Virus record (IMG/VR): IMGVR_UViG_3300037067_027643
Coordinates: 64,001-128,000 of that record
Direction: 5' to 3' (one strand)
Source of the DNA: a virus
Lineage: Duplodnaviria; Caudoviricetes
DNA length: 64,000 nucleotides
The position numbers and the translations under genes were made by a program. A model generated the notes under the pieces. It was not told where the DNA came from and ran no database searches. It worked only from the letters and a program-made list of their open reading frames with translations. Shown one piece after another: positions 598-32,578 of this stretch (the first letter of the stretch is position 1; every line of letters begins with the position of its first letter).

Positions 598-3500
598 TTA
601 TTTTTCATAAATATTTATCCAAGTAGATCCGACTACCCAATTTTGATTTGGAGATAAAACTGCTTGTGGATCATAATGGGCTCCTTGTTCACTGTTTCCT
701 CTAATCTCAAAATGTAGATGAACACCATGTGGAGGACACGCACCGTGACTACTTACACAATGTCCTTCTGCTCCCATATATCCAATTAAATCACCAGTTT
801 TTACAGTATCATTTTCTTTTACTAATAATATTTTAAAGTGATGATAGTTTGTAAAATATACCTTTTCATTGATAATATGTCTAATACTTATCTGATTTCC
901 TTTTGATTTTGTAATGGTTCCATCGTAAGAAGCATTTACTGGTATTTTACTATTATTATATTCTATTATTGTATTAAATCCGTTTGGTGTTATATCTATT
1001 CCATGATGATATTTTTGTGTTTCGTTTGTCAATGTTCTATATCCCATCGGAGACATATATGTTCCTGATGCTGGTATTTTAAAGTAATCGCTTAATGCTG
1101 GATCGTTTATTACTAAAACAGTATTTCCGGTATTACTTGTATTTGTTCCTTTTACAGTGGTATTATTAGTGGATGGATTTAAATTGGTAGGAGCTTCATC
1201 ACTTCCATCTTTTTTAACTGCTACTCTCATAACTGTATCTACTGTCGTTGTCCAATCATTACCTTGTACACTATGTTCTACATTTGTTATTGTAAAATAA
1301 GCTCCTTTTGCGTATCTATTTGGTAGTCCTGTTACATTTATACAGTTTCCAAATTTAAGTCCACTCATTCCATCTATTGTAAAATTAAGTTTAACTGGTA
1401 ATATTACTTTTGATGTCTTTTTATCTTCTGTATAACTATTATCATTACTTGTATTTCCTGTTCCTCCATGTGTTCCAACTAAATATGCTGTCATTGCTGT
1501 TTTAGCACTATCACAGGTTTCTTGAGTTCTTTCAATCATTAATTGAAACATAGCATTAAATAAACTTTTCTTTAATCCTGCTGGAGTTTGATCTACTTTC
1601 TTTTTAGGATCTTTTTCACTTATACCATCTCTCGCTACTCCATAATCTACATCACTTTGTTGAATATTATCATAAGTAATATCTCTTACCTGTCTTCCAT
1701 AAAACTGATATCCGTTTGTTCCCTTTGTTGAAATATCACTGGATCCTTTTTTTTGATTTACTCCAAACATTATATGTCCTTTAATATTTCCATCTACTTC
1801 GGTATTTATACTTAGTTCTCTCATCAAACTATCAACACCAAAACCAGTTAGATTTACAGGTAATATTTGTTCTCCCTCTTTCCAGGTGTTTAAATCTACT
1901 ACTGATATTGTATTAGGATTGTTTTCGTTCACAAAAAGTCCAAATTTCCAAGCCTGTCCACATACATCACTAATACCATTCAATAGAGCCATTACAAAAG
2001 CATCTAACGTATCAGTTTGTTCGTAAGTTTCTTTGATAAATTTTAGATTTACACATATATTTCTTACATATCCTTTATAAGAATTGTCAGTTGATTGAGT
2101 GTTATCTGTATTAGAATGAGTTCCACCAGCTGCTGTTCCTGTTCTTGTTTGTGCTATGTTTCCTGTATCTGGTTTTACATTACTTCCATCAAAATAAGGA
2201 ATGTTATCTGGAATAAATTTAACTACATCTTGACCACTTCCACCTCCAGCTGCCATACTTAAATCTAATGTTAAATTTCCAAATATACCGTTTCCTGGTA
2301 GTAAACAAATTAGCGGATCTCCACTCATTAAACATGGATCATTAAATATTTTAGTTCCATAACTATTTAATTTTGGAAATATAGGTTTAAATGTTGTTGG
2401 TGTTTTTACTGCTCCTCCAAATATAGAATCATCTGAGATTTCTATGTTTTTATCTTCTGTTTTTATTCCATTTATTTCTTCATTGATAGTTATATTATTA
2501 GTAATACAATCATCGCTTACATTTGAATTATCTTTAGAAACAAATCCAAGACTATTAGTTACAATAAAATCTTCTATAAATCCCCATGTTACATAATATT
2601 GTGTTTTTCCAGTTCCTATTCCTATAAATGTTGCTATTTTATCTAAAAATCCTTCTGGTTTCATATTTACCTTAGCAGAAAATCCTAACGGAATTGATCC
2701 TTCTGTGACAGCTACTTTATTTTGAAAACTTCTATAAATTTTAGAAGAATCAAGTGTGCTACTATTTGATTTATCATTATAAAAAAAGGCACTTCCACCA
2801 GGAGCATTGTCCATCCAACGATATATTTCTTCAAATACATAATCAATATTAGTTCTTGGTTTATTTTTACCTTCATTTTCTATCTTACCATCATCACCAA
2901 GTTCAATACTTTTTCCTATCATTCCTCTACTCATAGTTTTTATATCAGCACTTAAAAAAGTATCGGCCATACTAACCATTGTAGTAGAACAATCAAATCC
3001 ACCTTTATCATTTTGTTTCCATGTAAAATTGGATACCACTCCTTTTAAAGCATCATAATGACCTCCAGCAGCTTTTACTAATCTTTGTACTTCTCTTAAT
3101 ACACAGGTATCCATTTTTCTAGTAATATCAATATCCATCTTATAAGGATTTATATTACCATCTGGAAGTAAACTCCATCCCCATTCTAAAAAGCAAGCTA
3201 CACCTGGAGTCATATACAACATTTCTAATATTTCTAAATGTTCTACACAGAAACAAGTGTAATTTATTGTTGCTTCTCTTACAGAACCAAATGCCCCTTT
3301 ATTTTTAATATTTATATCTATTATACCTGGATTTGGAACATTTCTTATATTAGAATACAGTTCACTAAATCCGGAACGCATATCATTAAATTCTTTTCCT
3401 TTTGCTAGGCTTCCATTTAATATCCATTGTTTTCTTATCTCTTCATTAAACGTTGGAACCTTTTCTACCATTACAATATTAGTATCCTGAATATTAACTA

Positions 3501-6962: not shown

Positions 6963-8979
6963 TTATTTTGTAATTTTTGGTGTGAACATAATTAATTCCA
7001 TAAAATAATCTTTAAATAAATTATATGGAATTTTTAATGTATGATTTTGAGTATTAACTAAATTAACTAATATTTTATTTTCGTATACATCTATATCTTT
7101 TAATTGACATTTTTCTCCTTGTACAATTGTATATCCACTTTGTTTATCGTGTATTGTAAAAGATGATTTATAATATTTATCTTCCATAAATTTAATTATT
7201 TTGATTATTACTTACAATAAACATTTACTAAATTTTTATTAATATCTTTAATTAATTCAGATAAACGAATTATTTCTTCATTTTTTAATTGAATTAATTG
7301 TTCGTAATGTTTTTCTTTTTGTGTTAAATTTACATTTAAAAGATTTTGTCTTTCTTCTAATTTAACAATTTCAATTTGAAGTTTTAATTTTTTATCAAAA
7401 CATTCTTTTAATGTATGTTCTATTTCATTTTGTTGTTCTTTTTGATATTTAAGAATCTCTTTATTAATTTTTAATATTTCTTCTTCTTTATATCTAAAAA
7501 GTTCTAATTCTACTTTTTCTTTTAATTTTTTATAGCCAATAATTTTCATAATTTTTAATCTTAAGTTAATAAATTGTTTTTTATATTGTAAGTATATAAT
7601 TCTGAATATTCCAAATATAACAAATATCCAAAATGGTATTACTATAAAATAATATATAATAGTATAAATCATTTTTTATGAAATTATTTAATTTCTAATT
7701 TATCTCTTAGTTTATTTAATAATCTAAGCCTATAAGATACATCTAAATATATTTGACATGCTTTACTTGTTCTATAAGAGGGATTACACATATTAATATA
7801 TAATTCATGTGCTAATTCTCTTAATTTTAATAATTCAAAATCTATTAAGTATTCTATTTCTTCCATAATTTTATTTTTTATTATTTAACTTCCAAACTAT
7901 ATCACTGTGATTAAATGGATACCACTTTTGAATTATATTTCCTACTCTTAATTCTACACTATCCATTCTTATACCAACAACTAATCCAACTTTATTCTTT
8001 TCTGGCATACAATTACTTCTATTATCATCGAATATAATTTCTTTATTAAAATATGGTAGAAAATCTAAATAATTATATAATTTTACTTTCATATTACTTC
8101 CAAAATATTTTATATTCGTGAACTCCTCTTATATCACAACAACGATAACCAGTTTTAACTTTCTTACCATCTAACAATAATTCTTTTATTTTTTCTTTAT
8201 ATTTATTTTCATTTTTACCACCAAAAAAACTTATTTCATACCAATCTATTAAATCATTTGGTCCAATTCGTTTTTCAAACATTTTATCATATAATTGTTC
8301 TATTTTCTTTTCTAAATCAAATAATTTACAACCACAATTAATCATTTTTATACCTCCTATATAATCTTCAGGGAAATATTCTGGAGTTTTACATGGATTT
8401 TCTAAACAATATTGAATTGCTTCTTTTTTAGTTGTATGTGTATTAATATTACTAGTATCATTATCTTCAAATGAAACCCATTTTGATACTAATGGATGTG
8501 ATTGTTTTTGTATAATTCTACCATTATACCAATATTCATCTACTTCTATTTGAACAGGTTTACTATTTCCGAATATATCTTTCATTTTTACTTTGATTTA
8601 TAATTTTCGTACAATATATCATTTGCTTTGGTTGTTAAGTCATCATACTCTTCATACAAATAATTAGGAATTTCTTCTAAATCAAATTCTTTAACTTTAT
8701 CGTAAAATTCTAACATCTTCTTTTTATTTTTTATTAAAATTGACTGTTCAAATTCATCTAATAATTTTATAAATTCTTCCATAACTTATATATTTTAGTT
8801 TAATACTACAAAAATAAGTAAAATTTTATTAATAATAAAATTTATTTTTATAATTCTTCAATTTCAATTAATCTTTCAGTTAACCACTTACTCAATTTTA
8901 AAGTTTCTTTGCTTCGAGCCTTTTTAAGTTCGAAGCCAATTCCGAAACTAGTTCTGTGCCAAATTCTAAATGTTTTCAT
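6963..8979 (-). other. Cassette of small hypothetical early-type genes (6963-7187, 7208-7672, 7684-7866, 7871-8092, 8094-8585, 8588-8782, plus untracked 43-aa ORF 8848-8979)
   Basis: Tandem packed ORFs downstream of a TTTG-N20-TATATTTG promoter; 7208-7672 has an N-terminal TM helix plus coiled coil. Confidence 0.6.
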
Positions 8980-9006: not shown

Positions 9007-9038
9007 CAAATATACAAATTAAAAACCACACTACCAAA
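9007..9038 (-). promoter_or_regulatory. Bacteroidota sigma70-type promoter (-33 TTTG / -7 TAnnTTTG)
   Basis: Minus strand TTTG-N20-TATATTTG. Confidence 0.75.
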
Positions 9039-9096
9039 TTTATTTTAAATTATTTTTATTACTATTTATATAAATAATCCAATATTAGTTATTATA

Positions 9097-13925: not shown

Positions 13926-13952
13926 AATATATTTAATTTTAAATTAACGATA

Positions 13953-13984
13953 CAAAAATAAGTAAAATTTTTCACTTTACCAAA
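13953..13984 (-). promoter_or_regulatory. Bacteroidota sigma70-type promoter
   Basis: TTTG-N20-TATTTTTG. Confidence 0.75.
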
Positions 13985-14047
13985 TTTATTTTTAATTTTT
14001 ATAATAGAAAATAATTTTGTATATTAAAATAAAAATTCTAAAACAAC

Positions 14048-19604: not shown

Positions 19605-20901
19605 TCATAATTCACAAAATTTATTAATATTTCTCAAACTTGTTAATTCTGTAGTTAATTGTTTCTTTGTATTTGGTGTTTCTAATACCGCTTTATTTGT
19701 ATCTACATTAAATGAAACTAATTTCCAAACATATCCACGATTCTTAGCCCATGATACATGGTATTTTCGTCCAATTATATATTCTTTTGGTATATCTTTT
19801 AATTCTGTCATATTTTATCCAAAATTAATCATACCTTCTGGATATTTCTTCCAAAATTTAACCAATTGTTTTATTGCTTCTTGTTTTAAAATATTTCTAT
19901 CAGTTTTATCAAAACAAGTAGAAGTATAATAAATATTATCATCATTATCTTCTAAATATTTTAACGTTTCTTCTAACGAAAATAAAATATCATCTGGATA
20001 ATCTCCTATACGAAATACATCATGTGGTAAATCGTTAGAAGAAATATAAAATATTTGTTTTTTACAATTATATGAAGTTACATTATAATTTGATGTATGA
20101 TACTTATTATATATAGCAATCTCACATAATCCTTTTTTAACAATTTTTAATTGTCTTTCAACAATAGCTTTTTGTTTAATTCCATAATCGATAGTCCATT
20201 CTGGATATGTTTCTAATAATTCTAAATCTATTTTATCTCTATGATTTATCATATTATCATAAAACTTAATAGATCTTTTATATGTATTAATAACATTATT
20301 TCTAACTTTATCTTTGCTTATATTATACGGTTTAAAAAACCAAGTATGACATCCCATATTATTTATTTTTAATTATTATTTAAACGGATTAAACCCACTA
20401 TATCTCAAATCATTTACATTTGCTATTCTACTATCATCTACTATAGTTTCTTCATTTGTTACTATTACAGAATCTTCTACATCACACCAATATTCTTCTG
20501 GTAAATTTTTATCAATATTAAACTTTTGATATAAAAATTCAGATATAGGTTCTTGTTTAACTCCATTTTCAAAATATACAACCTCTCTATAATCTCCAAT
20601 TTTAAAAATATTTTCTTTTAAAAATGGAGTATAAAACCTTTTTACATACTGACCTATGTACTTAATGTATTGTCTGTAATTAGTTTTGTTATTCATATTT
20701 ATTTTAATGATTAAATGACTCTTTATATGTATGACCACAATTTTTACATTTATATTCTACTCTTGTTATATATAAATTATAATTTCTTAATTTTCTACTA
20801 AACTGTTTAATTTCATTTGATAAAGAAACAGTTTCACGACTAATTTCTTTAAATTGACAAAATCCAAAGAAACATAAAATATTTTTAATTAATTGTATCA
20901 T
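19605..20901 (-). other. Four small hypothetical genes (19605-19811, 19815-20357, 20376-20738, 20704-20901)
   Basis: Tandem ORFs downstream of rtcB. Confidence 0.55.
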
Positions 20902-22283
20902 AAATTTAATATTTTTTTATTATTTTTACGTTCTTCTCTTTCCTGTTTCATTTTCTTATTAGCTTTTCTATCTTTCCATGATTCTCCTTCACTACTGTCT
21001 TTGATATTCAATATAGGTTTTACTCTATCAATTATTTCAATAGTAGGTTCCAATAATAGTTCAATTAATTCACTGTCTTTATAAGATTGTGGGCTTTCAT
21101 CTAATGTACCTTTACAAACAGAAGTTGAATAAATCCCTTCCATAGACTTTTTAAAATCATCTAAATTTACTGTTTCTTTTGCTTTAGTTCTACTCATTAT
21201 TCTACCGGCTCCATGAGCACAACTGTAATTCCAATCTGGATTAGATTTACCGACAGCGATAACCATTCCATCTCTCATATTAAATGGTATAATCATCTTT
21301 TTATCTTTGTAAGATGCTATTGCTCCTTTACGAATTATAAAATCATTAAAATCGACATAATTGTGAATTGACTCTATTACTTCATCAAATTTAGTAATAT
21401 TTAAAACTTCTTGAATAATATCTAACATTGTTTTTCTATTCCAAACTGCATACTGTTGAGCAAATATCATATCAAATAAATAGTTTATTAAATATTCATC
21501 TTGTAAGTATTCTCGATCTATTCCTATACCAAACTTTTTTTTAAGTGAATCAATTTTATTTGGTATCTCTTTCTTATCAACTGTATTTAATACAATTTCA
21601 TTTAATCGTTTACTGTAATTATTAGAAGATCCATTCATTTGTTTTTTAGCTTGATTTATCCAATATTCTGCTACCTTTAAACCAAAGTTTCTACTTCCAG
21701 AATGAATGGTTACATAATAATCTGTAAGTGCTTGATTTACACCTATTTCAAGAAAGTGATTGCCTCCACCCATTGACCCAATACTATTAAAAAACTTCTT
21801 GATATTCATTTTAATATCTTTTAATTTTTTAATTAACCATTGTTCACTATATAATGGAGCTACATAATTTGTATTATATTTAACATTAAATGCTTTTACA
21901 AACTTATCTGCTATTATCTGTACATCATTGTATGGAATATCAGTAAAAACAGGACTTTTATGTTCATTAAATCCCATTGGAATTCTATGTCTGATTTCCT
22001 TATTTATTTTTTCTAAATCTAAATTAGAAGCATTTGGAAACTTTCCACTAATGAGACCACAGCCAATATCAACGCCTATATAGCTGGGTGTTAAGTAGTT
22101 ACCTAATTCCATTGTAAATCCAATACAAATTCCTTTACCAAAATGAGCATCCGGTTGAATTCTTACTTTAAGTCCTTTTGATATTGGAGAATTGATAATC
22201 GAATATATTTGAGAAATTACTTCCTCCTCTACATTATCAATGAATATTTTTGCTGTTGTATATTTCCCTGTTAATTCTATCAT
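20898..22283 (-). CDS. rtcB: RtcB family RNA 2',3'-cyclic phosphate ligase (tRNA repair)
   Basis: PDAHFGKG, GVDIGCG, GGGNHFLE, IHSGSRNFG, HNY, RKGA, HGAGR, DESP..YK. Confidence 0.95.
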   Translation of the reverse strand: MIELTGKYTTAKIFIDNVEEEVISQIYSIINSPISKGLKVRIQPDAHFGKGICIGFTMELGNYLTPSYIGVDIGCGLISGKFPNASNLDLEKINKEIRHRIPMGFNEHKSPVFTDIPYNDVQIIADKFVKAFNVKYNTNYVAPLYSEQWLIKKLKDIKMNIKKFFNSIGSMGGGNHFLEIGVNQALTDYYVTIHSGSRNFGLKVAEYWINQAKKQMNGSSNNYSKRLNEIVLNTVDKKEIPNKIDSLKKKFGIGIDREYLQDEYLINYLFDMIFAQQYAVWNRKTMLDIIQEVLNITKFDEVIESIHNYVDFNDFIIRKGAIASYKDKKMIIPFNMRDGMVIAVGKSNPDWNYSCAHGAGRIMSRTKAKETVNLDDFKKSMEGIYSTSVCKGTLDESPQSYKDSELIELLLEPTIEIIDRVKPILNIKDSSEGESWKDRKANKKMKQEREERKNNKKILNL

Positions 22284-23250: not shown

Positions 23251-23282
23251 CAAATATACAACTATTATTTCAGACTACCAAA
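23251..23282 (-). promoter_or_regulatory. Bacteroidota sigma70-type promoter
   Basis: TTTG-N20-TATATTTG. Confidence 0.75.
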
Positions 23283-24195
23283 TTTATTTTGAGAAAAGAC
23301 TGAAAATATTTTAAAACAGCTACGTCTTTCATCTTAGCTTCTACTATTATAACCACATCTTTACCTAATGTATCCACTGGTTCATAAATATAATCAGCAT
23401 GTGATTGTTTACTCAATTTTTATCTACAACATTTTCAAATAACAATTTACTACTAGAATGATGAACGGTTGGAATTATATGTTTTGGCCATGTATTATAT
23501 GATAGCAAAAATGCTTCTTTGTATGTTAACTTACCCGAATTAATCTTATAATGTAATGAGTCAAATACAATTGGAATTCCTATTTGTTCATGTATAGCAA
23601 ATAAATCTTGAACTGTAAACATATTACATTTATCATCATTTTCTACAGTCAATCTTTTTTGAACATTCTTATCTAATCTATTGAAGTTTTCACAAAATCT
23701 ATCAATAGCACTGGTTTTATCTCCATAGCTTGCGCCTACATGAACATTTATCTTGGTATTATTATCAGCATTAAAACTCATTAAATCAAATATTCGGCTT
23801 GTAGCATTTAGTTCTAATACAGTTTTATCAACTACATCCTTTTTATTACTAGCTAAAACATTGAATGGTCCGGGATGAAAGGAAAGTCTAACATTGTTAT
23901 TTCTACAATAATCTCCAATAGTTTTTAATTCTTGAACGATTGTTTTATAATCTGGTAAATCTTCAAATCGATAAAATGTTTTTAAGGGAAAGAAGTCATC
24001 TGGAAGTCGATAAGCAAATATACCATTATCAACGTTCCATTTTAAAATAATTTTTAAATCTTGTATGTTTTTTATGATTAAATCATTAACAGCTTGTACT
24101 CCTTTAATACCAAAACTTTTTCTTGTAATGGTATGGCCAGTCTTACAGTCTGGAATTGATAAATTTATACAAGCATATCCGAAGATTTGTTTCAT
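23270..24195 (-). pseudogene. uvsE: UV-damage endonuclease UvsE/UVDE, split by a -1 frameshift near 23416
   Basis: GYACIN, RLSFHPG, INVHVG, RLTVENDD, PIVFDSLH motifs; conserved C-terminus SHADYI...IVEAKMKD lies in the -1 frame after the TGA at 23413. Confidence 0.8.
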
Positions 24196-24199
24196 ATTA

Positions 24200-25113
24200 T
24201 TACTTTACTGTTTTAATCCAATATCTATATTTTAGATTTTTAGCATGTTTTAAACCTTCTTTGCTTTTTTCTAATTGTTCATTCCAATAACTAATTAAAT
24301 TTTCTTTAGCATATTCAAATGTATCAAATGATGTTGTACTAGAAACTATATCTAAATCATAAAGAAACTCAGAGAAATCTTCTAATGTACCTATAAATCC
24401 TTCATCATAACTAATATAAAAAAGGTTTATTTCTTCTTCTGTAAATGTATCTAAAGACGATGACATATTATTCGATTATTAATTTTCCAAATACTTTTTT
24501 AAGTTTGGGTTTATCATTTACATAATCCATTAATTGAATATGATTTGGAAGCATTTCAATATTGTTTAAGTATTTTTGTGCAATATTATTAGCTCTTATT
24601 ACTAACAAATGTGCATACAAAAGACATATTTTTTGTTCTTCCATATTCCAACCAGTATAAGGTTCATCAAACTCCTCCAAAATTTCTAATGTTCCCAATT
24701 CTCCAACAAACATTTTAATAAACTTAGCAACCCTTGATGAATATTTATTTTCTTCCTCTAACTGAACTAATAAAGAATTAAATTTTTCCAATAAAACATC
24801 AAAGTTTCCTACTGGTTTAATATCTGATAATTCATATATGGTTGTTTTCATTATTTAATAATTTATTTACTACATTAATAGCATCCTTGAGTAAAATAGC
24901 TGTTTCTGTATTTCTATAAGCTATCTCAATAAAATATTTATTACAATCCTTGAATATTTCTTCTATGTTAGCAGCTGTTTTGTTAGTATATTCTTTAATC
25001 CATTCATCTTCATCTAACTCTCCTTGATTATAACTTGGATACATACCTTTAATTTCGCCAGCTTTAAAAGCATTTCTTAAATCTTCTTCTGTATATGTTT
25101 TCATAATTGACAT
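24200..25113 (-). other. Three small hypothetical genes (24200-24466, 24468-24851, 24832-25113)
   Basis: Tandem ORFs after promoter 25138-25169. Confidence 0.55.
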
Positions 25114-25137
25114 TTATTTTATTAATTTTTAAAAGTA

Positions 25138-25169
25138 CAAAGATAATAAAAAATTTTGATATAAACAAA
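25138..25169 (-). promoter_or_regulatory. Bacteroidota sigma70-type promoter
   Basis: TTTG-N20-TATCTTTG. Confidence 0.7.
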
Positions 25170-25199
25170 TTTATTTTTTAAGGAGGAAAAATAAAGTAG

Positions 25200-25271
25200 A
25201 GCCCATTTCTGGAATTGAACCAGAATATATAGTTTTGCGGACTACTGACTAAACCATTCATCCAAATGGGC
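25200..25271 (-). tRNA. tRNA-Cys(GCA)
   Basis: Cloverleaf; anticodon arm GTAGT-CCGCAAA-ACTAT; U73; C at position 33. Confidence 0.85.
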
Positions 25272-25278
25272 ATTTTTG

Positions 25279-25365
25279 CATACGTTGTAGGATTTGGACC
25301 CACGAGGAAGTATAAACTTCAATAGTTTTGGAGACTATCGCCTTCGACCACTTGGCTAAACGTAT
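25279..25365 (-). tRNA. tRNA-Trp(CCA) with long variable arm
   Basis: ATAGT-CTCCAAA-ACTAT; A1-U72, G73; V-arm GAAGT-TTAT-ACTTC. Confidence 0.85.
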
Positions 25366-25378
25366 GTATATCAATTAG

Positions 25379-25459
25379 TTGCGAGAGAGGGACTTGAACC
25401 CTCGAGGCTTACGCAATGGGATATGAGCCCATCCTGATACCAACTTCAGTCATCTCGCA
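25379..25459 (-). tRNA. tRNA-Met(CAT), initiator-like, enlarged variable arm
   Basis: ATGGG-CTCATAT-CCCAT with three consecutive G-C pairs; 12-nt V-region. Confidence 0.8.
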
Positions 25460-25465
25460 ATATAT

Positions 25466-26563
25466 TTATATTTCTAAAATTACATCTTTATGATCTAAAA
25501 TTAATTTGAAATTATATCCATGTTCTTTATAAGCTTTTAATTTATCTTTCATGTTTTGTTCATTGTATGTATAATTACTTTTTATTTCTACAATTAAATT
25601 TGTGTCTGGTAAATAAAAATCGGGTATTGCTGTTCTTTGTTTTAATAATTGTGTATCCCAATATGAAATTCTTAATTTTTCAACTTCATAATTAATTTTA
25701 TCTTTATCTAATTGGTTAGCATATTCTAATTCATACCCACTTCTATAAAATATTTGTTTATTATTCCAAGTAGTATGATATCCATGTTTATAATGTGAAT
25801 TTTTATTAATTACATTTAATTTTCCATGAATTATAGCATTTCCAGTACTTTCAGAAAAACATCGTAATTTAATATTAAAATAATTTATCACTTTATTAAA
25901 ATTTGATAAAGAATATCCATATTTCTCTGACATATCTGAAGTACTTAATTTTTCATCATAATAGTCTTCATATAGCATAATTCGAATTCGTTCAAATTCT
26001 TCGTAATAATTTTTGGTTCCTAATACATTTTTATCAAATCCAAAGTATTTTATTAAATTTGGAATTATTTGATATCGTTTACAAATTTCTGGATGTTTAC
26101 ATTGACCTTTTATTGATCCACACATTTTACAATCAACATTATTAAATCTTTTTCTTTGATATTCTAATTTACAAATATTACATAAACATTTTTTAATACT
26201 ATTTCTTTTATTAACAATAATATCGCTTCCGCATTTAACACATTTAGCTTCTTTTGTTTCTAAATTATTATCGTTTTTTGTACTATATTTATGAGAACAA
26301 TACGAAGAACAAAATCTACCACTACCATACGAACCATCTATTTCTATACCACATTCTTCACAATATAATTGCTTTATTTCAATTATTTTATTAGCATTAA
26401 TTATTGCCTTTTTCTTCTCTTTTGTTATTCTACATAATTCTATTTGTTCTTTTGTTATTATTCTACTTCTACTACATGATTTTGAACAAAATTTTCCAGT
26501 TCCATAAGAACCATTATGTTCATGTCCACATTTTTCACAAAATTTTTTATTTTCCATATCCAA
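25466..26563 (-). CDS. Putative free-standing homing endonuclease (Cys-rich Zn-finger repeats plus PD-(D/E)XK/TnsA-like domain) inside tRNA array
   Basis: CxxC...YGxGxFCSxxC repeats; YRSGYE...PDFYLP...IVEIK. Confidence 0.75.
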   Translation of the reverse strand: MDMENKKFCEKCGHEHNGSYGTGKFCSKSCSRSRIITKEQIELCRITKEKKKAIINANKIIEIKQLYCEECGIEIDGSYGSGRFCSSYCSHKYSTKNDNNLETKEAKCVKCGSDIIVNKRNSIKKCLCNICKLEYQRKRFNNVDCKMCGSIKGQCKHPEICKRYQIIPNLIKYFGFDKNVLGTKNYYEEFERIRIMLYEDYYDEKLSTSDMSEKYGYSLSNFNKVINYFNIKLRCFSESTGNAIIHGKLNVINKNSHYKHGYHTTWNNKQIFYRSGYELEYANQLDKDKINYEVEKLRISYWDTQLLKQRTAIPDFYLPDTNLIVEIKSNYTYNEQNMKDKLKAYKEHGYNFKLILDHKDVILEI

Positions 26564-26621
26564 ACTATTTTACATTTTATATATAAATAGTAAATAGTTT
26601 GAAAATAAATTCCGCAATATT

Positions 26622-26630
26622 TCAAAGAAC
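26622..26630 (-). promoter_or_regulatory. boxA-like element
   Basis: GTTCTTTGA between tRNA-Thr and the endonuclease gene. Confidence 0.6.
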
Positions 26631-26651
26631 AATTTTAATTTTATAAATTTG

Positions 26652-26724
26652 AGCCAATAGAAGGAATCCAACCCTCAACCCTTCCGGTACAAACGGATTG
26701 CTCTAGCAATTGAGCTATACTGGC
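26652..26724 (-). tRNA. tRNA-Thr(TGT)
   Basis: TCCG-TTTGTAC-CGGA anticodon arm. Confidence 0.85.
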
Positions 26725-26741
26725 ATTACATTATTATAGGG

Positions 26742-26818
26742 CGGTCTATAAGGAATTTGAATCCTTCTGAACATTCCGAGTGACAGTCGGACAGCCACAC
26801 CTAGCAGCTCCATAGACC
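26742..26818 (-). tRNA. tRNA-Asp(GTC)
   Basis: TCCGA-CTGTCAC-TCGGA; G73. Confidence 0.9.
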
Positions 26819-26842
26819 AATTATATATTATATTAATTTTAG

Positions 26843-26915
26843 TGAGACTATGAGGAATCAAACCCCAATCCTATGAACCGTACTCATAAATTCTATTCAA
26901 TTGAACTATAGTCCC
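26843..26915 (-). tRNA. tRNA-Arg(ACG)
   Basis: TATGA-GTACGGT-TCATA. Confidence 0.85.
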
Positions 26916-26930
26916 AAATTAATAATAAAG

Positions 26931-27003
26931 TATTCGGTACGGGAGTTGAACCCGTATGTCAAGATTGAAGGTCTTGAATCCTTACCAATTAGATGAACCG
27001 AAC
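26931..27003 (-). tRNA. tRNA-Glu(TTC)
   Basis: CAAGA-CCTTCAA-TCTTG; C at position 33. Confidence 0.85.
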
Positions 27004-27019
27004 AAATGTCTTGTATATG

Positions 27020-27092
27020 TAGCCAAAGATGGAATTGAACCATCGCCCTGTATCTTATAAGGATACTGCTCTTACCACTGAGCTACTTGGCT
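27020..27092 (-). tRNA. tRNA-Ile(TAT)
   Basis: GTATC-CTTATAA-GATAC; A73. Confidence 0.85.
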
Positions 27093-27103
27093 ATATTTAA
27101 TAG

Positions 27104-27178
27104 TGGAATCTATGGTATTCGAAACCATCTGCTGTTCTCAGTGCAAATGAGATGACCACCCTAGCAGTCCCAGACCCC
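27104..27178 (-). tRNA. tRNA-Ala(TGC)
   Basis: TCTCA-TTTGCAC-TGAGA; G3-U70. Confidence 0.9.
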
Positions 27179-27189
27179 GTTTATATTAG

Positions 27190-27264
27190 TTGGTGTAATT
27201 GGATTTGAACCAATGACCTCAATCTTATCAGGATTGTCGTCTGACCGGGCTGACATATACACCA
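27190..27264 (-). tRNA. tRNA-Ile(GAT)
   Basis: CAATC-CTGATAA-GATTG. Confidence 0.9.
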
Positions 27265-27274
27265 ATATAATTAG

Positions 27275-27346
27275 TGGAACTAGATGGATTTGGACCACCG
27301 ACCACTTCCTCTTCAGGGAAGCACTCTACCACTGAGTTATAGTTCC
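27275..27346 (-). tRNA. tRNA-Phe(GAA)
   Basis: CTTCC-CTGAAGA-GGAAG. Confidence 0.9.
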
Positions 27347-27356
27347 ATTGTATTTG

Positions 27357-27430
27357 TAGGAATACCAGGATTCAAACCTGGGATCTAGTGGATGTAAACC
27401 AATCGCTTTAATCAACTAAGCTATATTCCT
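27357..27430 (-). tRNA. tRNA-Val(TAC)
   Basis: ATTGG-TTTACAT-CCACT. Confidence 0.85.
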
Positions 27431-27440
27431 ATGTTATCAG

Positions 27441-27513
27441 CGACTCTAATACGGAATGATCGTATAACCTACCGGTTAACAGCCGGTTGCTCTACCAATT
27501 GAGCTATAGAGTC
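27441..27513 (-). tRNA. tRNA-Asn(GTT)
   Basis: ACCGG-CTGTTAA-CCGGT; atypical T-loop ATCATTC. Confidence 0.85.
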
Positions 27514-27522
27514 ATATATTAG

Positions 27523-27594
27523 TGCCTTCGAATCGACTTGAACGATTACTCTTACATCTTAAAAGGATGAGATTTTACATTAAACTACGAAGGC
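27523..27594 (-). tRNA. tRNA-Lys(TTT)
   Basis: CATC-CTTTTAA-GATG. Confidence 0.85.
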
Positions 27595-27599
27595 AATTG

Positions 27600-27682
27600 T
27601 GGAGGAAGAGTGATTTGAACACCCATAGCTTTTTGCGACGGATTTACAGTCCGCTGATTTCTACCCACTTACCATTTCCTCC
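27600..27682 (-). tRNA. tRNA-Tyr(GTA)
   Basis: GCGGA-CTGTAAA-TCCGT; long V-arm. Confidence 0.9.
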
Positions 27683-27702
27683 ATTATATATTATTATCTT
27701 TG

Positions 27703-27774
27703 AGCGAGATAACGGGTTCAAACCGTTGACAAAGCATTGGAAGTGCCTCATGTTATCAACTACACCAATCTCGC
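27703..27774 (-). tRNA. tRNA-Gly(TCC)
   Basis: AGGCA-CTTCCAA-TGCTT; U73. Confidence 0.9.
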
Positions 27775-27796
27775 TTAATTCATTTATATCAATACG

Positions 27797-27805
27797 TCAA
27801 AGAAC
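27797..27805 (-). promoter_or_regulatory. boxA-like element
   Basis: GTTCTTTGA between terminator and first tRNA of array 1. Confidence 0.65.
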
Positions 27806-27820
27806 ATTGTTTTTAATTCA

Positions 27821-27859
27821 AATAAAAAACCCAACTAGTTTTTTAATTTTCTGGTTGGG
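27821..27859 (-). terminator. Attenuator terminator of tRNA array 1
   Basis: CCCAACCAG-N12-CTAGTTGGG (one C-A mismatch) followed by TTTTTTATT. Confidence 0.75.
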
Positions 27860-27896
27860 TTTTATATATTTTATTATAATATATTTTTTAATAAAC

Positions 27897-28052
27897 TCAC
27901 CAACCAACATCTTTTGCTTCTTCTCCAAAACGATAATCATTATTTGTTTTTGCTATAAAAATACAACCGTCCACAAACATCATATTTTTATCTATAATGC
28001 TATTGTTCCAACATGTATTATTAATGACTGTATTATTTCGCTTTGTTTTCAT
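27897..28052 (-). CDS. Leader peptide 1 (51 aa) of tRNA array 1
   Basis: MKTKRNNTVINNTCWNNSIIDKNMMFVDGCIFIAKTNNDYRFGEEAKDVGW*; its 3' end TTGGTTGG is complementary to the terminator 5' arm. Confidence 0.75.
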   Translation of the reverse strand: MKTKRNNTVINNTCWNNSIIDKNMMFVDGCIFIAKTNNDYRFGEEAKDVGW

Positions 28053-28133
28053 TTTATTTTTTGTTATTACTTCTTTTTATTTTATATAAATAGTTAAAAA
28101 TAAATTAAAAATTTTCAATTTCAAATTATTTTA

Positions 28134-28165
28134 CAAAATTAAGTAAATTTTTTCACTCTACCAAA
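28134..28165 (-). promoter_or_regulatory. Bacteroidota sigma70-type promoter upstream of leader 1 (also ACTATTTATA motif at 28085-28094)
   Basis: TTTG-N20-TAATTTTG. Confidence 0.75.
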
Positions 28166-28232
28166 TTTATTTTTAATTATTTTAATATACAACATTATTT
28201 TCAAATAAACAAATAAAATTTAATTGTAATAT

Positions 28233-28997
28233 TTATTTATCCCAAATATTATTAAATTTTGAATAATCAATATCTTCGTATGGATATTTATCATTAAAAT
28301 ATTCCAATTTTACTATATCAAATGTATTTAATAATTTTTTATCATCTATCAATAAAATTTTTATATTTGTTTCATGAATACATTTCCACATTTTACATTT
28401 ATCATTTTCACTCATCCAACCTTTTACTTCAATATATACATCAAAATCAGGCAAATAAAAATCTGGCGTATAAGAACGAGATTTATCAAATTTGACTCTT
28501 ATTCTATCCCAATTTATTTTTAATTCATTTAATCGTTCCGCTACTGTTTTTTCCCATTTTCCTTGAACATTAATTATTTTATATCCATTATATATCGAAT
28601 ACCACAATATATTATTTCCTTTATTTTCTTCTAAAAATTTTATCCTATGTTCTGACATTTTCTTTCTTGATTCAATTGTATGGTTTTTATTATTCCAATA
28701 TGGTATTATTTCGCCATTTTCAAATTTCTGTTTAAGATTAATACTAGTATTTTTAAGTCTATCATCATTTTCTTTTGTTAATCCCTTATTCCATTTCATA
28801 TTTTCTTTTGATTCTTCGGGAAAGTCTAAAAATTTTTCTTTACCCGATTTTATTTTTCCAGAACTATATGATTTTTTTAAACCATTACTATTTTTTAACC
28901 TATTTGCTGGACATTGATTAAAATGCTCTGAACAACAATATTTACCATTTTTTAATTGATATTTTCCTTCTTGACCGCAATTATAAGCACACAACAT
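28233..28997 (-). CDS. Putative homing endonuclease (NUMOD3-like segment plus PD-(D/E)XK domain) between the tRNA arrays
   Basis: N-terminal CxxxCG...CC..C; WNKGLTKE; HTIESRKKMS; YTPDFYLP...YIEVKG. Confidence 0.75.
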   Translation of the reverse strand: MLCAYNCGQEGKYQLKNGKYCCSEHFNQCPANRLKNSNGLKKSYSSGKIKSGKEKFLDFPEESKENMKWNKGLTKENDDRLKNTSINLKQKFENGEIIPYWNNKNHTIESRKKMSEHRIKFLEENKGNNILWYSIYNGYKIINVQGKWEKTVAERLNELKINWDRIRVKFDKSRSYTPDFYLPDFDVYIEVKGWMSENDKCKMWKCIHETNIKILLIDDKKLLNTFDIVKLEYFNDKYPYEDIDYSKFNNIWDK

Positions 28998-29046
28998 AAT
29001 TTTTACTATTTGTTTACTTATAAATAGTAAAAATTATTATTTTTCG

Positions 29047-29120
29047 TATCCACAGAAGGAGTCGAACCCTCAACCATTGGGGTAGAATCCCAATATTCTA
29101 TCCAGTTGAACTATGTGGAC
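29047..29120 (-). tRNA. tRNA-Arg(TCT)
   Basis: TTGGG-ATTCTAC-CCCAA. Confidence 0.9.
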
Positions 29121-29127
29121 ATTTTGG

Positions 29128-29201
29128 GGTGGCACTCGAGGATTGAACTCAAATCAACAGATTCACAGTCTGCCCGCTTAACCATTTAGCGTAATGTCAC
29201 C
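29128..29201 (-). tRNA. tRNA-His(GTG)
   Basis: GCAGA-CTGTGAA-TCTGT; G-1/C73. Confidence 0.9.
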
Positions 29202-29216
29202 ATTTAAAAATTATAT

Positions 29217-29225
29217 TCAAAGAAC
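29217..29225 (-). promoter_or_regulatory. boxA-like element
   Basis: GTTCTTTGA between tRNA-Pro and tRNA-His. Confidence 0.6.
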
Positions 29226-29237
29226 TATTGTTATCTG

Positions 29238-29314
29238 TCTAGGCGGTGCGATTCGAACGCACGTTATGTCGTGTTTCCAAAACACGCTAGTTTAGCCATC
29301 TGCTGTACGCCTAG
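29238..29314 (-). tRNA. tRNA-Pro(TGG)
   Basis: CGTGT-TTTGGAA-ACACG; C1-G72, A73. Confidence 0.9.
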
Positions 29315-29320
29315 TTATTG

Positions 29321-29406
29321 CGGAAAAATAAGGATTCGAACCTTAGGGACTGTTACATCCACGTCATTAGCAGTGACGCACAATAGACCAACTCTGTCAT
29401 TTTTCC
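29321..29406 (-). tRNA. tRNA-Ser(GCT)
   Basis: CGTCA-CTGCTAA-TGACG; long V-arm; G73. Confidence 0.9.
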
Positions 29407-29413
29407 ATTATAG

Positions 29414-29487
29414 CAGCCAAAACTGGGCTCGAACCAATACTCCGACAGTCAAAGTGTCGTATGCTTTACCGATTACATTATTTGGCT
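29414..29487 (-). tRNA. tRNA-Gln(TTG)
   Basis: CGACA-CTTTGAC-TGTCG. Confidence 0.9.
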
Positions 29488-29494
29488 ATAAAAG

Positions 29495-29581
29495 CGGAAG
29501 GTTAGGGACTCAAACCCCAGATACGGTATTAGCGTATTACTAATTTTCAAGATTAGCTCTTCGTTCAGCCAGACACCTTCC
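29495..29581 (-). tRNA. tRNA-Ser(TGA)
   Basis: CTAAT-CTTGAAA-ATTAG; long V-arm; G73. Confidence 0.85.
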
Positions 29582-29606
29582 ATTTATTATTTACAATACA
29601 TTATTT

Positions 29607-29615
29607 TCAAAGAAC
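29607..29615 (-). promoter_or_regulatory. boxA-like element
   Basis: AGTTCTTTGAAAA between terminator and first tRNA of array 2. Confidence 0.65.
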
Positions 29616-29623
29616 TTATATTC

Positions 29624-29659
29624 AATAAAAAACCCTATTTACTTTTGATTTAAACAGGG
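29624..29659 (-). terminator. Attenuator terminator of tRNA array 2
   Basis: CCCTGTTTA-N9-TAAATAGGG (one G-U) followed by TTTTTTATT. Confidence 0.8.
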
Positions 29660-29688
29660 GTTGTAATGTTTTTATATATTATACTATA

Positions 29689-29808
29689 TCATCTATAAAT
29701 ATCACAATACACCTGTTCCCATTGACTATGTCTTGGTTGTAAGCACGATGGTCTACTATTAATTGAGGGTTGATGTTGATGATTATATGTAACGATATTT
29801 ATTTTCAT
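29689..29808 (-). CDS. Leader peptide 2 (39 aa) of tRNA array 2
   Basis: MKINIVTYNHQHQPSINSRPSCLQPRHSQWEQVYCDIYR*; ACTATTTATA motif upstream at 29836-29845. Confidence 0.8.
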   Translation of the reverse strand: MKINIVTYNHQHQPSINSRPSCLQPRHSQWEQVYCDIYR

Positions 29809-29870
29809 TATTTTTGTTTTATTCTTTTAATTTTATATAAATAGTAAAAAAATTTTAAAAAGTTATTTTG

Positions 29871-30272
29871 TTAATATTTAAGATATTCTCCATCATTTTC
29901 TTTTCCTGTTCCTAAGTATTCTTTAAATCCAGTAATAATTGACATTGCTCGATCCATACAAGGTTTTATTTTTTCATCTTCTCCCCATTTTTCAATTTTA
30001 TATTGTAATGGTTTATAATTTCTTAAAGAAATATCTGATTTTGTAATTAATCCATAGTTATTAGATTCTGTTTTAACTATTGTAAAAGAAACAAATGGAA
30101 TTGATTCTACTCTACCAATTATATGTTCATTCTTATTATTTAAAATAGATAAATCTTGTTCTTTATCTTCAATATTAACTAAACCAGTATATATTTCTCC
30201 TTCTACAATACTATATCTATCTTCTAAAGATTTATATTCGGTTTTATATTTTGTCCAGTTAATTGTTATCAT
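29871..30272 (-). CDS. hypothetical protein
   Basis: 133-aa ORF after TTTG-N20-TAATTTTG promoter at 30290-30321. Confidence 0.6.
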   Translation of the reverse strand: MITINWTKYKTEYKSLEDRYSIVEGEIYTGLVNIEDKEQDLSILNNKNEHIIGRVESIPFVSFTIVKTESNNYGLITKSDISLRNYKPLQYKIEKWGEDEKIKPCMDRAMSIITGFKEYLGTGKENDGEYLKY

Positions 30273-30332
30273 AGTTTCGATTTATTCTACAAAATTAAGT
30301 AAATTATTTCAATCTACCAAATTTATTTTTGA

Positions 30333-30975
30333 TTATTTTAAATGACAAGTACAAGTTCCTATTTCTATTCCATTATCATCATACAATATACCTCTATCAT
30401 GACATTGAAAACAATTTTCTTCTTTTTTGACTTCTTGTTCTATCTCATCAATTACACTATATATCTCACCGACCCATGTTCTTACTGGGTCGTTTAAATA
30501 ACCACCACTTACATCATCGTCAATAAGGCATTCATATTCTATATTCTTTGCTACATCAGCTAATCTTTTTATTTGTTCTTTGGTTATATTCATATTATTT
30601 ATCTTAAAAAATACCACACCACCGTTTGTTGTTTGTTAAACTAAAAATATAAAAATCAAATTATTATGAAAAAAATGATGTTTGGTGGTGTGATATATGT
30701 TTTTATTTTATTTATTTATAAATTTCGTTTAATTCAAATTTATCTCCATGACAACAACTAAATCCATCGTCTAAATCATCCATTTCACAAAATTTTATAT
30801 TATCTTTTAATCTCCATTTACAATAATCACATGTAAATTCGTGACTTGATAAGTTTATACAATATTTAGATTTTATTGGATTACAAAAACCATCTTTACT
30901 AATACAATTATCACATGATTTTTCTATTGACATATATTTTATTTTTAATATACAAAATCTTTTATTGATTTCCAA
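30333..30975 (-). other. Two small Cys-containing hypothetical genes (30333-~30593, 30712-~30933)
   Basis: CxxC motifs; true starts probably at the internal ATGs. Confidence 0.5.
30611..30696. repeat. 13-bp GC-rich inverted repeat enclosing an ~60-nt loop
   Basis: ATACCACACCACC ... GGTGGTGTGATAT (full pairing with one G-U on the minus strand). Confidence 0.65.
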
Positions 30976-30983
30976 ATTTATTT

Positions 30984-32578
30984 CTATCTTTCTATAACTA
31001 CATATCCATTTACAATCTTTGGATTCTCATCTTTTAAAATCTTCATGATCTTATTAATATCATATCCATTTACTGGTTGTACAACTATTTTATTAATACC
31101 ATACATTTTTATATGTCTTATATCATAATCACCTACAGGAATGGTTTTAAAATCAACTCGTTTATATCCAGACTTCTTTAACCCAGCTTTAATTAATCGT
31201 TTAGATATCTGTTGAACAGAGAGTTGAGAAGTGACTTCTTTGAGAATGGTTTGTTTGTATATATCTTTTAGTTTCATTATTTTATTTACTTCTATAAATG
31301 TAAATCAATCATTTTTAATTTTTTATCTTTAATCATAAAATGTCCGAAATTTTTACCTTTATAATATTTACTCATTGACTCATAACTATATATTGGATAT
31401 TTATTTTCATACATTAAATCGGTAGCTACTATTTTAACTTTAGCTATTTTAGGTAACATCACATCTATATACCTTTCTAATTGTACAGATAGTTTATTTG
31501 GAAAAATTTCAATATGATAATCATTATTAAAAAATCTATAAGTTTTATCTTTTACTTTTATAGTATTTAAAAAGAATTGAATCATATCTGTGTAATATTG
31601 CTTATCAACATCTAATTTAGTTACATTATTTTGTAATTCGTTTAATAATGTTTTTAGTTTCATCATTTTATTTTTCCTTTTAAATATGGGTTAAATGATA
31701 TTTCATTTTGAATAAATTCTTTCCGTATAATAGATTTATTTTTATAATTCCGAATAAAATTATCAAATTTACTTTTATTAAAACTCGATTCTAATGCAGT
31801 TCTTGATTTATAATCTATAAATTTTTCTATATCATCGTTTACATCTTCAACATCTAAATTTTTAAATTCGTGTTTTAAATATTTTTCTGCAATTTCACTC
31901 GCTATATAAATCATATCATCTATCTGTTCTTGTGTATAATTAGTATTACCGCTTTCATTAATACTATTATAAATATCTTTTAGTTTCATATCTTAATTCC
32001 TAATATATCTTTTTCTTTATTTGTTCGACAATACCATTCTGCTTCTGTTAATATACCATTAATTCCAGACCCAGCTAAATCTTCTGTTCTATCTTTAATT
32101 GTATCAGTATTTATTTTTATTTGAGGATATGTTCCTGTATAAATAGTAGCTGGTATTTTAAAAGCTTGTACTTCAAAAATAGATGGTAAATCATCTCCTA
32201 ACATATCATCGGGAACAACCGCAACCAATATCATCTTACCATCAACTGATTTTTGTCCTATCATTTTAAAATATGTTGTTTCCATAATTACTATTTTTAT
32301 ATATAATAATTTTATTTTTTCATACTTTTCAATATTCTATAAATTGTTGAAAGTTCGTTAGACATTAAATTATCTAATGATATCATACCAGATTTTATTG
32401 AAGTTGCATGTGGGTGATACATTTCATAAATTTTTAATAGAATTTGATGTCTTTGAGTGCTATTTAGTTTATGCCATATTTTTTCATAATAAGGATCAAC
32501 TTTACTTTCATTAATAACTTTCTTTGTAATATCTTCTACAAGTTTATTTAATTCTGAACGTTTAATTGTTGTTGCCAT
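30984..32578 (-). other. Five small genes, four with capsid-targeting-like leaders (30984-31277, 31292-31666, 31663-31989, 31986-32285, 32312-32578)
   Basis: MKLKDIY..ILKE, MKLKTLLNE, MKLKDIYNSINE, MATTIKRSELNKLVEDITKKVINE. Confidence 0.6.

Follow-up and report, generated by a model that had tools for sequence, protein, structure and literature searches.

Why does a phage place a short open reading frame (ORF) and a transcription terminator in front of its own tRNA genes? The question arises in a 64,000-nucleotide stretch of DNA (the window) that comprises bases 64001–128000 of the virus record IMGVR_UViG_3300037067_027643 (Duplodnaviria; Caudoviricetes), a single phage genome of 285,744 bp with 25.5% GC. 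On its minus strand the order is a promoter motif, a short ORF (leader ORF 2), a 9-bp hairpin followed by six U residues (U6), the motif GTTCTTTGA, and an array of six tRNA genes. We think it likely that this locus is a ribosome-mediated leader-peptide transcription attenuator that ties transcription of the Ser-Gln-Ser-Pro-His-Arg array to how fast ribosomes decode the codons read by those tRNAs. The phage would then probably make the six tRNAs only while ribosomes decode the array codons slowly. An attenuator was the original prediction for this locus, drawn from the letters and their translations, and it is supported by the present analysis of sequences and predicted folds. The sequence-level features of an attenuator were all found: a promoter-proximal ORF, an excess of cognate codons, a terminator, and a mutually exclusive antiterminator. 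The coordinates of the features are collected in Table 1.

Codon content of leader ORF 2

The control tract spans codons 10–29 of leader ORF 2, and its codons read exactly as the original prediction had listed them (29781–29722). Sixteen of the 20 codons specify His, Gln, Pro, Ser (TCA, TCG, and AGT twice), or Arg through AGA, and both Ser codon boxes are present. Each of the six array tRNAs has at least one cognate codon in the tract. His, Gln, and Pro are sparse in the phage proteome, as had been claimed (1.6%, 3.3%, and 2.9%, respectively), and the His, Gln, Pro, Ser, and Arg-AGA classes together account for 17% of the codons in 228 long ORFs. The binomial probability of at least 16 such codons in 20 is 1e-9. 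The tract score of 16 is the genome maximum, and the runner-up among 945 ATG ORFs of at least 30 amino acids scores 13. All 170,678 stop-free 20-codon intervals in the six reading frames were also scored, and the six intervals with at least 14 such codons all lie inside leader ORF 2. Because these genome-wide scans single out leader ORF 2, the enrichment is real and is no general trait of an AT-rich genome. It is confined to the frame of the ORF: one of the other two frames of the tract holds 5 such codons in 20, and the other contains a stop. Throughout leader 2, every codon except one TTA (Leu) matches an amino acid for which the phage encodes a tRNA.

A predicted RNA switch followed by a boxA

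The leader RNA can be divided into four segments (Table 1). The predicted intrinsic terminator (29659–29624) starts 28 nt past the leader stop codon and consists of a 9-bp stem with a 9-nt loop, followed by U6, with a free energy of -9.1 kcal/mol. Its arms are CCCUGUUUA (29659–29651) and UAAAUAGGG (29641–33). The original prediction proposed that GAACAGG-ugua-UUGUGAU (29718–29701) pairs instead with AUUACAA-cc-CCUGUUU (29667–29652), and this pairing is the minimum free energy (MFE) structure calculated by RNAfold when the terminator 3' arm is withheld. Withholding the 3' arm represents the state just after RNA polymerase has made the 5' arm. The antiterminator fold has an energy of -14.4 to -15.1 kcal/mol under this condition. 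The full-length transcript has an MFE of -26.4 kcal/mol; nucleotides 11–37 of the ORF pair with nucleotides 96–123 and the terminator forms. As modeled, this set of folds is the classical arrangement of 1:2, 2:3, and 3:4 pairings.

The effect of a stalled ribosome was modeled by folding truncated transcripts with a ribosome footprint of -15..+14 nt. The antiterminator of leader 2 forms at ~78% for stalls at codons 2–20 and at 35–47% for stalls at codons 27–37. Truncated-transcript folding replaced equilibrium folding of the full transcript with the same footprint, which gave no discrimination for a second leader in the window (leader 1) or for the leader at locus L097 of another huge phage; both are described below.

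We infer from these parts and folds that the ORF is translated, that ribosomes stall in it, and that the switch responds in the following way. Transcription would start at the promoter motif that lies 23 nt before the leader ATG, or at a host-type promoter further up, and the transcripts must get past the hairpin and U6 before boxA and the tRNAs are reached. When charged His, Gln, Pro, Ser, and Arg-AGA tRNAs are scarce, slow decoding would keep the ribosome within the leader's first two thirds. This would mask segment 1, leave segment 2 to pair with segment 3, and block the terminator. RNA polymerase would continue, gain the Nus antitermination complex at boxA, and transcribe the array. When decoding is fast, the ribosome would pass over segment 2 (codons 27–37) and then be released. 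Segment 2 would be occluded or recaptured by segment 1, segments 3 and 4 would fold together, and transcription would end. The net effect would be negative feedback in which tRNA output tracks decoding demand.

The motif GTTCTTTGA that follows the terminator has five minus-strand copies in the 286-kb genome, compared to ~1.5 expected per strand, and four of the five are within the 3-kb tRNA region. Of 53 Bacteroidota 16S leaders, 18 carry GTTCTTTGA on the sense strand and none carries it on the antisense strand. It lies there at about -100 to -340, mostly at -100 to -190, and is usually extended as GTTCTTTGAAAATATTGAA. This match identifies GTTCTTTGA as the boxA found in Bacteroidota rRNA leaders, and the idea that it is a promoter was dropped once the match was made. 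BoxA works in the nascent RNA (PMC10250234). Since boxA acts on nascent RNA and lies only 11 nt past the U-tract, the most likely start of the tRNA transcripts is upstream of the terminator. The same start is expected because no promoter motif of the -33/-7 type is visible between the leader ORF and the tRNAs. With an upstream start, the terminator would act as a gate and not as the end of an unrelated gene.

Two kinds of promoter are candidates for this start. The motif upstream of the leader ATG has a core like that of T4 late promoters (Table 1), and leader 1 is preceded by an identical motif. The consensus tttttACTATTTATATAAATA has ~30 copies in the genome, 1–67 nt upstream of start codons, and its core equals the T4 late-promoter TATAAATA. 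Twenty-four copies have a downstream ORF, and a short ORF plus terminator follows only at the two tRNA leaders. The start codons of both leaders have contexts like those of genes, and this is compatible with their translation. The second candidate is the host-type promoter upstream of a 133-amino acid ORF. It is one copy of a ~50-nt promoter cassette, AAATAAATTTGGTAGA.TGAAA.AATTTACTTAATTTTGTA, which has the Bacteroidota -33 TTTG / -7 TAnnTTTG pattern and also precedes the leader of a relative (locus L098). No terminator was seen between the host-type promoter and the leader, so early transcripts should enter the leader too.

The hairpin and GTTCTTTGA could also be taken together as an rrn-like boxB-boxA antitermination signal, or as an RNA processing site, that operates independently of translation and makes the ORF irrelevant. 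A boxB hairpin precedes boxA in rRNA leaders (PMC10250234), and the match to the Bacteroidota rrn boxA is real. However, the 12 nt before boxA in the rrn leaders of the host phylum are purine-rich and contain no U-tract, whereas U6 follows the hairpin here. BoxA also occurs without a hairpin in the middle of the array and after array 2, and the codon match is left unexplained. We regard a translation-independent signal as highly improbable. PeSL-type shuffling cassettes, which join a stem-loop to an early promoter in T4-type phages, were rejected as a description of the locus; no promoter motif follows the hairpin, and the combination of hairpin and boxA is found only at tRNA arrays.

A sister leader and analogues in other huge phages

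The attenuator reading was examined against a paralogous module in the window, leader 1, which has the same promoter motif, ORF, hairpin with U-tract, and boxA. Leaders 1 and 2 share a 28-nt block around the promoter motif and a GGGTTTTTTATT..GTTCTTTGA tail, and their ORFs and hairpins are unrelated in sequence. Downstream of leader 1 are a 13-tRNA array (array 2), an inserted endonuclease gene, and then Met-Trp-Cys (array 3). Of the 50 codons after the start, 49 fall in the 15 amino acid classes of arrays 2 and 3, and the mismatch count of leader 1 is the lowest among 575 ORFs. These two arrays were merged by choice because the inserted endonuclease gene alone separates them; array 2 by itself would give weak enrichment. 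Leader 1 has no His, Gln, Pro, or Leu codons. Both of its Arg codons are CGN, corresponding to tRNA-Arg(ACG), and the three Arg codons of leader 2 are AGA, corresponding to tRNA-Arg(UCU). The final codons of leader 1, GUU GGU UGG UGA, pair with the terminator 5' arm. Its behavior in the footprint model is classical, with the antiterminator at 76–80% for stalls up to codon 44 and at 1–2% at the end.

Analogues were reached through the RNA ligase RtcB in four other low-GC huge-phage records (loci L096–L099 and L110). They contain three further leader families that have the same design and no sequence similarity to leaders 1 or 2. The Gln leader is a 17-codon ORF with five consecutive Gln codons that precedes four Gln tRNAs in L099 and two in L110. 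Its stop codon adjoins UUGGGU, which can pair with ACCCAA, the terminator 5' arm. A second, tandem terminator follows the Gln attenuator (L099 1165–1195; L110 ~1000–1030), and the Gln tRNAs come after it. The L098 leader holds FSKHSKSFKFWSSK, 14 consecutive codons that all belong to the downstream tRNA set, and GUUCGGA occurs both within this ORF and in the terminator 3' arm. In the L097 leader, 38 of the first 39 codons specify Asn, Ile, Tyr, Glu, Asp, Cys, Met, or Arg by CGC, and the tRNAs that follow are Tyr, Glu, Asp, Asn, Cys, Met, Ile, and Arg(ACG). The nonmatching tail, V-G-R-T-G, is the antiterminator strand. The terminator is followed by a boxA-like motif, CTCTTTGAAA in L097 and ATCTTTGAAA in L096.

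The specificity of the leaders was compared in a matrix of five leaders by five arrays. The diagonal P values are 1e-5, 9e-6, 7e-10, 2e-5, and 1e-4. Each leader scores best for its own array, cross-matches are poor, and of 120 permutations the true pairing comes out first. Every one of the five families has, at the ORF 3' end or close to it, a stretch that repeats the terminator 3' arm and pairs with the 5' arm. With the 3' arm withheld, four families show this antiterminator in the MFE fold. Two families are represented by homologous pairs. L099 and L110 differ by three synonymous and no nonsynonymous changes; stems are intact, loops are changed, and a compensatory U-A to A-U change is found at the loop base of the second tandem terminator. 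L096 and L097 differ by two synonymous changes, one D>N replacement inside the array set, and an in-frame indel of one codon. By sequence comparison, the homologous pairs change as a coding and structured RNA should.

The ORF could be an ordinary small late gene that encodes a functional 39-residue peptide and has its own terminator. The codon match would then be a coincidence or the result of local composition, and the tRNAs would be expressed by leak-through or from an unrecognized promoter. T4-type phages have many small ORFs. The promoter-to-ATG spacing resembles that of real genes, the start context of leader 2 ranks among the best 1% of ATGs and lies at the 82nd percentile among long genes, and the antiterminator by itself is not statistically compelling. 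A coincidence, however, would have to recur in five unrelated leaders, each with the right array. The ORF has no hit to a PHROG family, the tract shows no enrichment in its other two frames, boxA begins just 11 nt from the U-tract, and no -33/-7 motif is visible before the tRNAs. We therefore consider an ordinary gene very unlikely.

A second alternative retains the switch and changes the signal, which would be amino acid supply or the overall rate of translation, with the codon match merely tuning the sensitivity. Classical attenuators answer to charged tRNA, and thus to amino acids as much as to the tRNA level. Leader 2 contains 19 codons of other arrays, and leader 1, with its 15 amino acid classes, comes near to a general translation gauge. 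Against this, the five leaders are each specifically enriched for their own array. The Arg codon box is divided between the two leaders exactly like the two Arg tRNAs, and Leu, which has no phage tRNA, is nearly absent from them (1 of 88 codons in both leaders together compared to 8.2% of the proteome). A general gauge is disfavored because array specificity, the Arg split, and Leu avoidance would be needless for it, and we judge this alternative unlikely.

Several observations weigh against the attenuator reading. Among 73 hairpin-plus-T-run candidates in the whole genome, the competing helix of leader 2 ranks 6th and that of leader 1 ranks 29th. The competing helix is thus not exceptional genome-wide, and for this reason structure alone would not carry the claim; the leader 2 helix is the strongest among the compact terminator-like candidates. 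In the footprint model, the antiterminator is back at 76% with the ribosome on the stop codon, where the ribosome masks just the UUGUGAU half and leaves the GAACAGG:CCUGUUU core free. Because this masking is partial, termination after full translation probably also needs re-pairing of the 1:2 helix. Equilibrium folding of the full-length transcript favors the terminator for most stall positions in the tract, so the switch would have to be kinetic. Leader 2 is not purely specific for array 1, the Ser-Gln-Ser-Pro-His-Arg array: codons 2–9 (K I N I V T Y N), along with 4 of the 20 codons in the tract, are those of other arrays or of Leu. Two phages with related capsids, LR756508.1 (28 scattered tRNAs) and Flavobacterium phage immuto, have no convincing leaders. 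Finally, the searches turned up no orthologue of leader 2, and support from covariation or from the ratio of nonsynonymous to synonymous substitution rates (dN/dS) is therefore confined to the analogous families.

The search for orthologues covered several parts of the locus. Compared with cultured phages, DNA matches to the leader region were limited to single tRNAs. The exact tract sequence had no match, and the tRNA-Ser 3' half had none in viral or metagenome contigs. Relatives of the capsid protein had no tRNAs nearby. The neighboring 133-amino acid protein had no relative in IMG/VR; its sole homologue (55% identity) lacks downstream tRNAs, and locus L083 is the same phage. The phage is present in both a landfill metagenome and a groundwater metagenome. 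Contigs from the landfill run, which is from a different study and year, have zero differences from the groundwater phage at 27700–30400, hence no natural variation.

A stronger version of the attenuator reading is that the leaders form a phage-borne sensor of the tRNA pool, with each block turned on only when the supply of exactly its tRNAs falls. We advance this version tentatively; it may be right, and we place it somewhat short of an even prospect. The fall could arise because the AT-rich codons of the phage are poorly matched to the host tRNAs, or through host defenses that cleave tRNA. The tRNA supply would then be a demand-regulated counter-defense that combines a translated test track with a kinetic RNA switch and an antitermination signal borrowed from rRNA. 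The RtcB ligase gene nearby fits a setting of tRNA damage and repair.

The tRNA region and comparison with known systems

The major capsid protein of the phage is of the T4 type (Gp23, E 4e-75), and the nearest cultured capsid relatives (52–55% identity) include Flavobacterium phages. The promoters and boxA of the phage are of the Bacteroidota type, as identified by their motifs. The 22 tRNA genes are all on the minus strand at 25199–29581, lie in three blocks, and cover all amino acids but Leu. Two endonuclease-like ORFs at 25466–26563 and 28233–28997 (minus strand) divide the region into these blocks. Both have a zinc ribbon and a PD-(D/E)xK-like domain (Phage_endo_I / DUF7487 hits) and are reminiscent of the homing endonucleases inserted into the tRNA regions of T4 and T5. 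A separate promoter motif at 26591 belongs to the first ORF, which stops 7 nt short of tRNA-Met. RtcB RNA ligase and UvdE UV endonuclease are encoded just downstream of the tRNA region at 20898–22283 and 23413–24195 (minus strand), and RtcB near tRNAs fits a tRNA-repair context.

Some of the tRNAs are unusual. At 88 nt and with a variable-arm stem-loop of 5 bp, tRNA-Trp(CCA) takes a class II shape, which is unusual in a tRNA for Trp. tRNA-Met(CAU) at 82 nt and tRNA-Asp(GUC) at 81 nt are also over-long, as are Asn, Met, Glu, Cys, and Lys tRNAs in L096–L098. ARAGORN found tRNAs with a CUA anticodon (amber suppressors) in the huge phages LR756508.1 and G001, which hints at stop-codon recoding there.

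Table 1. Positions of the features discussed; coordinates are those of the window unless a locus is named
Feature	Position	Strand	Remarks
Host-type (Bacteroidota-like) promoter	30290..30321	minus	TTTG-N20-TAATTTTG; upstream of the 133-amino acid ORF; function suggested by the motif
Promoter cassette copies	30290–30321, 28134–28165, ~13951–14004, 8786–8870, 23264–23290, 9031–9056	minus
Promoter-like motif of leader 2	29830..29845	minus	ACTATTTATATAAAAT, T4 late-promoter-like TATAAATA core; 23 nt upstream of leader ATG
tttttACTATTTATATAAATA motif examples	29830–29845, 28079–28094, 26576–26591, 49498, 53210
Leader ORF 2	29689..29808	minus	39 codons + TGA; translation MKINIVTYNHQHQPSINSRPSCLQPRHSQWEQVYCDIYR
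Control tract	29722..29781	minus	codons 10–29; 16/20 codons His/Gln/Pro/Ser/Arg-AGA
Segment 1	29772..29798	minus	5' part of ORF; protector helix with segment 2 in full-length MFE
Segment 2	29701..29719	minus	antiterminator 5' strand, GGAACAGG-ugua-UUGUGAU; codons 30–36
Segment 3	29651..29667	minus	AUUACAA-cc-CCUGUUUA; antiterminator 3' strand and terminator 5' arm
Segment 4	29624..29641	minus	terminator 3' arm UAAAUAGGG, then UUUUUUAUU
boxA, GTTCTTTGA	29607..29615	minus	11 nt past U-tract, 25 nt before tRNA-Ser
Further boxA copies	29217–29225, 26622–26630	minus	no preceding hairpin; Pro/His gap, and after tRNA-Thr before endonuclease gene
Regulated array	29046..29581	minus	Ser(UGA), Gln(UUG), Ser(GCU), Pro(UGG), His(GUG), Arg(UCU)
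Leader 1 module	27775..28094	minus	same promoter motif, ORF, hairpin + U-tract, boxA
Leader 1 ORF	27897–28052	minus	51 codons
Leader 1 hairpin	27821–27861	minus	AACCCAACCAG/CUAGUUGGGUU + U-tract
Leader 1 boxA	27797–27805	minus
Gln leader	L099:1068–1214; L110:897–1044		17-codon ORF MNNNISNMIQQQQQTYV with CAG CAA CAA CAA CAA (QQQQQ)
L098 leader	L098:4864–5033	minus	MRN-FSKHSKSFKFWSSK; before Lys-Lys-Trp-Ser-Phe-Phe-Ser-His
N/I/Y/E/D/C/M/R-CGC leader	L097:4568–4809; L096:4455–4690	minus	43/44 codons
Over-long tRNAs Trp, Met, Asp	25278–25365, 25378–25459, 26739–26819	minus
CUA-anticodon tRNA	L106 ~1835–1906	plus	ARAGORN
CUA-anticodon tRNA	L111 ~1170–1241		of its reverse strand; ARAGORN

Phage tRNA genes are usually seen as constitutive codon-usage helpers, and lately as decoys or replacements against tRNA-cleaving defenses (PMC10264068, PMC11464382, PMC11555353). 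The control of their expression has hardly been addressed in the literature. A literature search did not find leader peptides or attenuation of tRNA genes in phages or cells, and as the search was incomplete, their absence is unproven. If the attenuator reading is true, the logic of trp and his attenuation extends to the tRNA genes themselves, and phages re-use the host rRNA boxA for tRNA arrays. The modules would be a ready-made, sequence-readable sensor of the decoding speed at chosen codons, and the tRNAs that a phage handles as limiting in its host could be inferred from sequence alone.

The boxA of this locus resembles that of rrn-type NusB-NusE antitermination. GTTCTTTGA and its AT-rich ..ATTG extension match Bacteroidota 16S leaders, and here too the motif is on the transcribed strand ahead of long untranslated structured RNAs. 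It differs in that the phage copy stands directly after a predicted conditional terminator and before tRNA arrays, where Nus factors would bind. T-box riboswitches likewise sense the state of a specific tRNA and choose between a terminator and an antiterminator. They differ in that uncharged tRNA is bound directly through a specifier loop and an ORF is not needed; in 24000–31000 the only Rfam match at E<=1 was tRNA.

The enterobacterial attenuators (ilvGMEDA, thr, his, trp, leu, and pheA) share more of the design. A short ORF rich in regulatory codons is followed by an intrinsic terminator, the terminator 5' arm can pair with a segment that overlaps the ORF 3' end, and the position of the ribosome would decide between them here as well. 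The antiterminator is weaker than the terminator and the choice would be kinetic, which is the accepted view of trp attenuation. The enterobacterial attenuators gate biosynthetic enzymes, whereas tRNA genes would be gated here. Codons for five amino acids and six tRNAs are scattered over a tract of 20 codons instead of forming a tight run, and segment 2 is masked just partly once the ribosome reaches the stop codon. The setting is also different: a phage of a Bacteroidota-type host, no Shine-Dalgarno sequence, and a boxA after the terminator. In Escherichia coli, attenuation of pheST by the pheM leader peptide feeds back on the decoding machinery for the sensed codons, as would the leaders described here. 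The pheM system differs in that it controls a synthetase, senses one amino acid, and is a cellular element.

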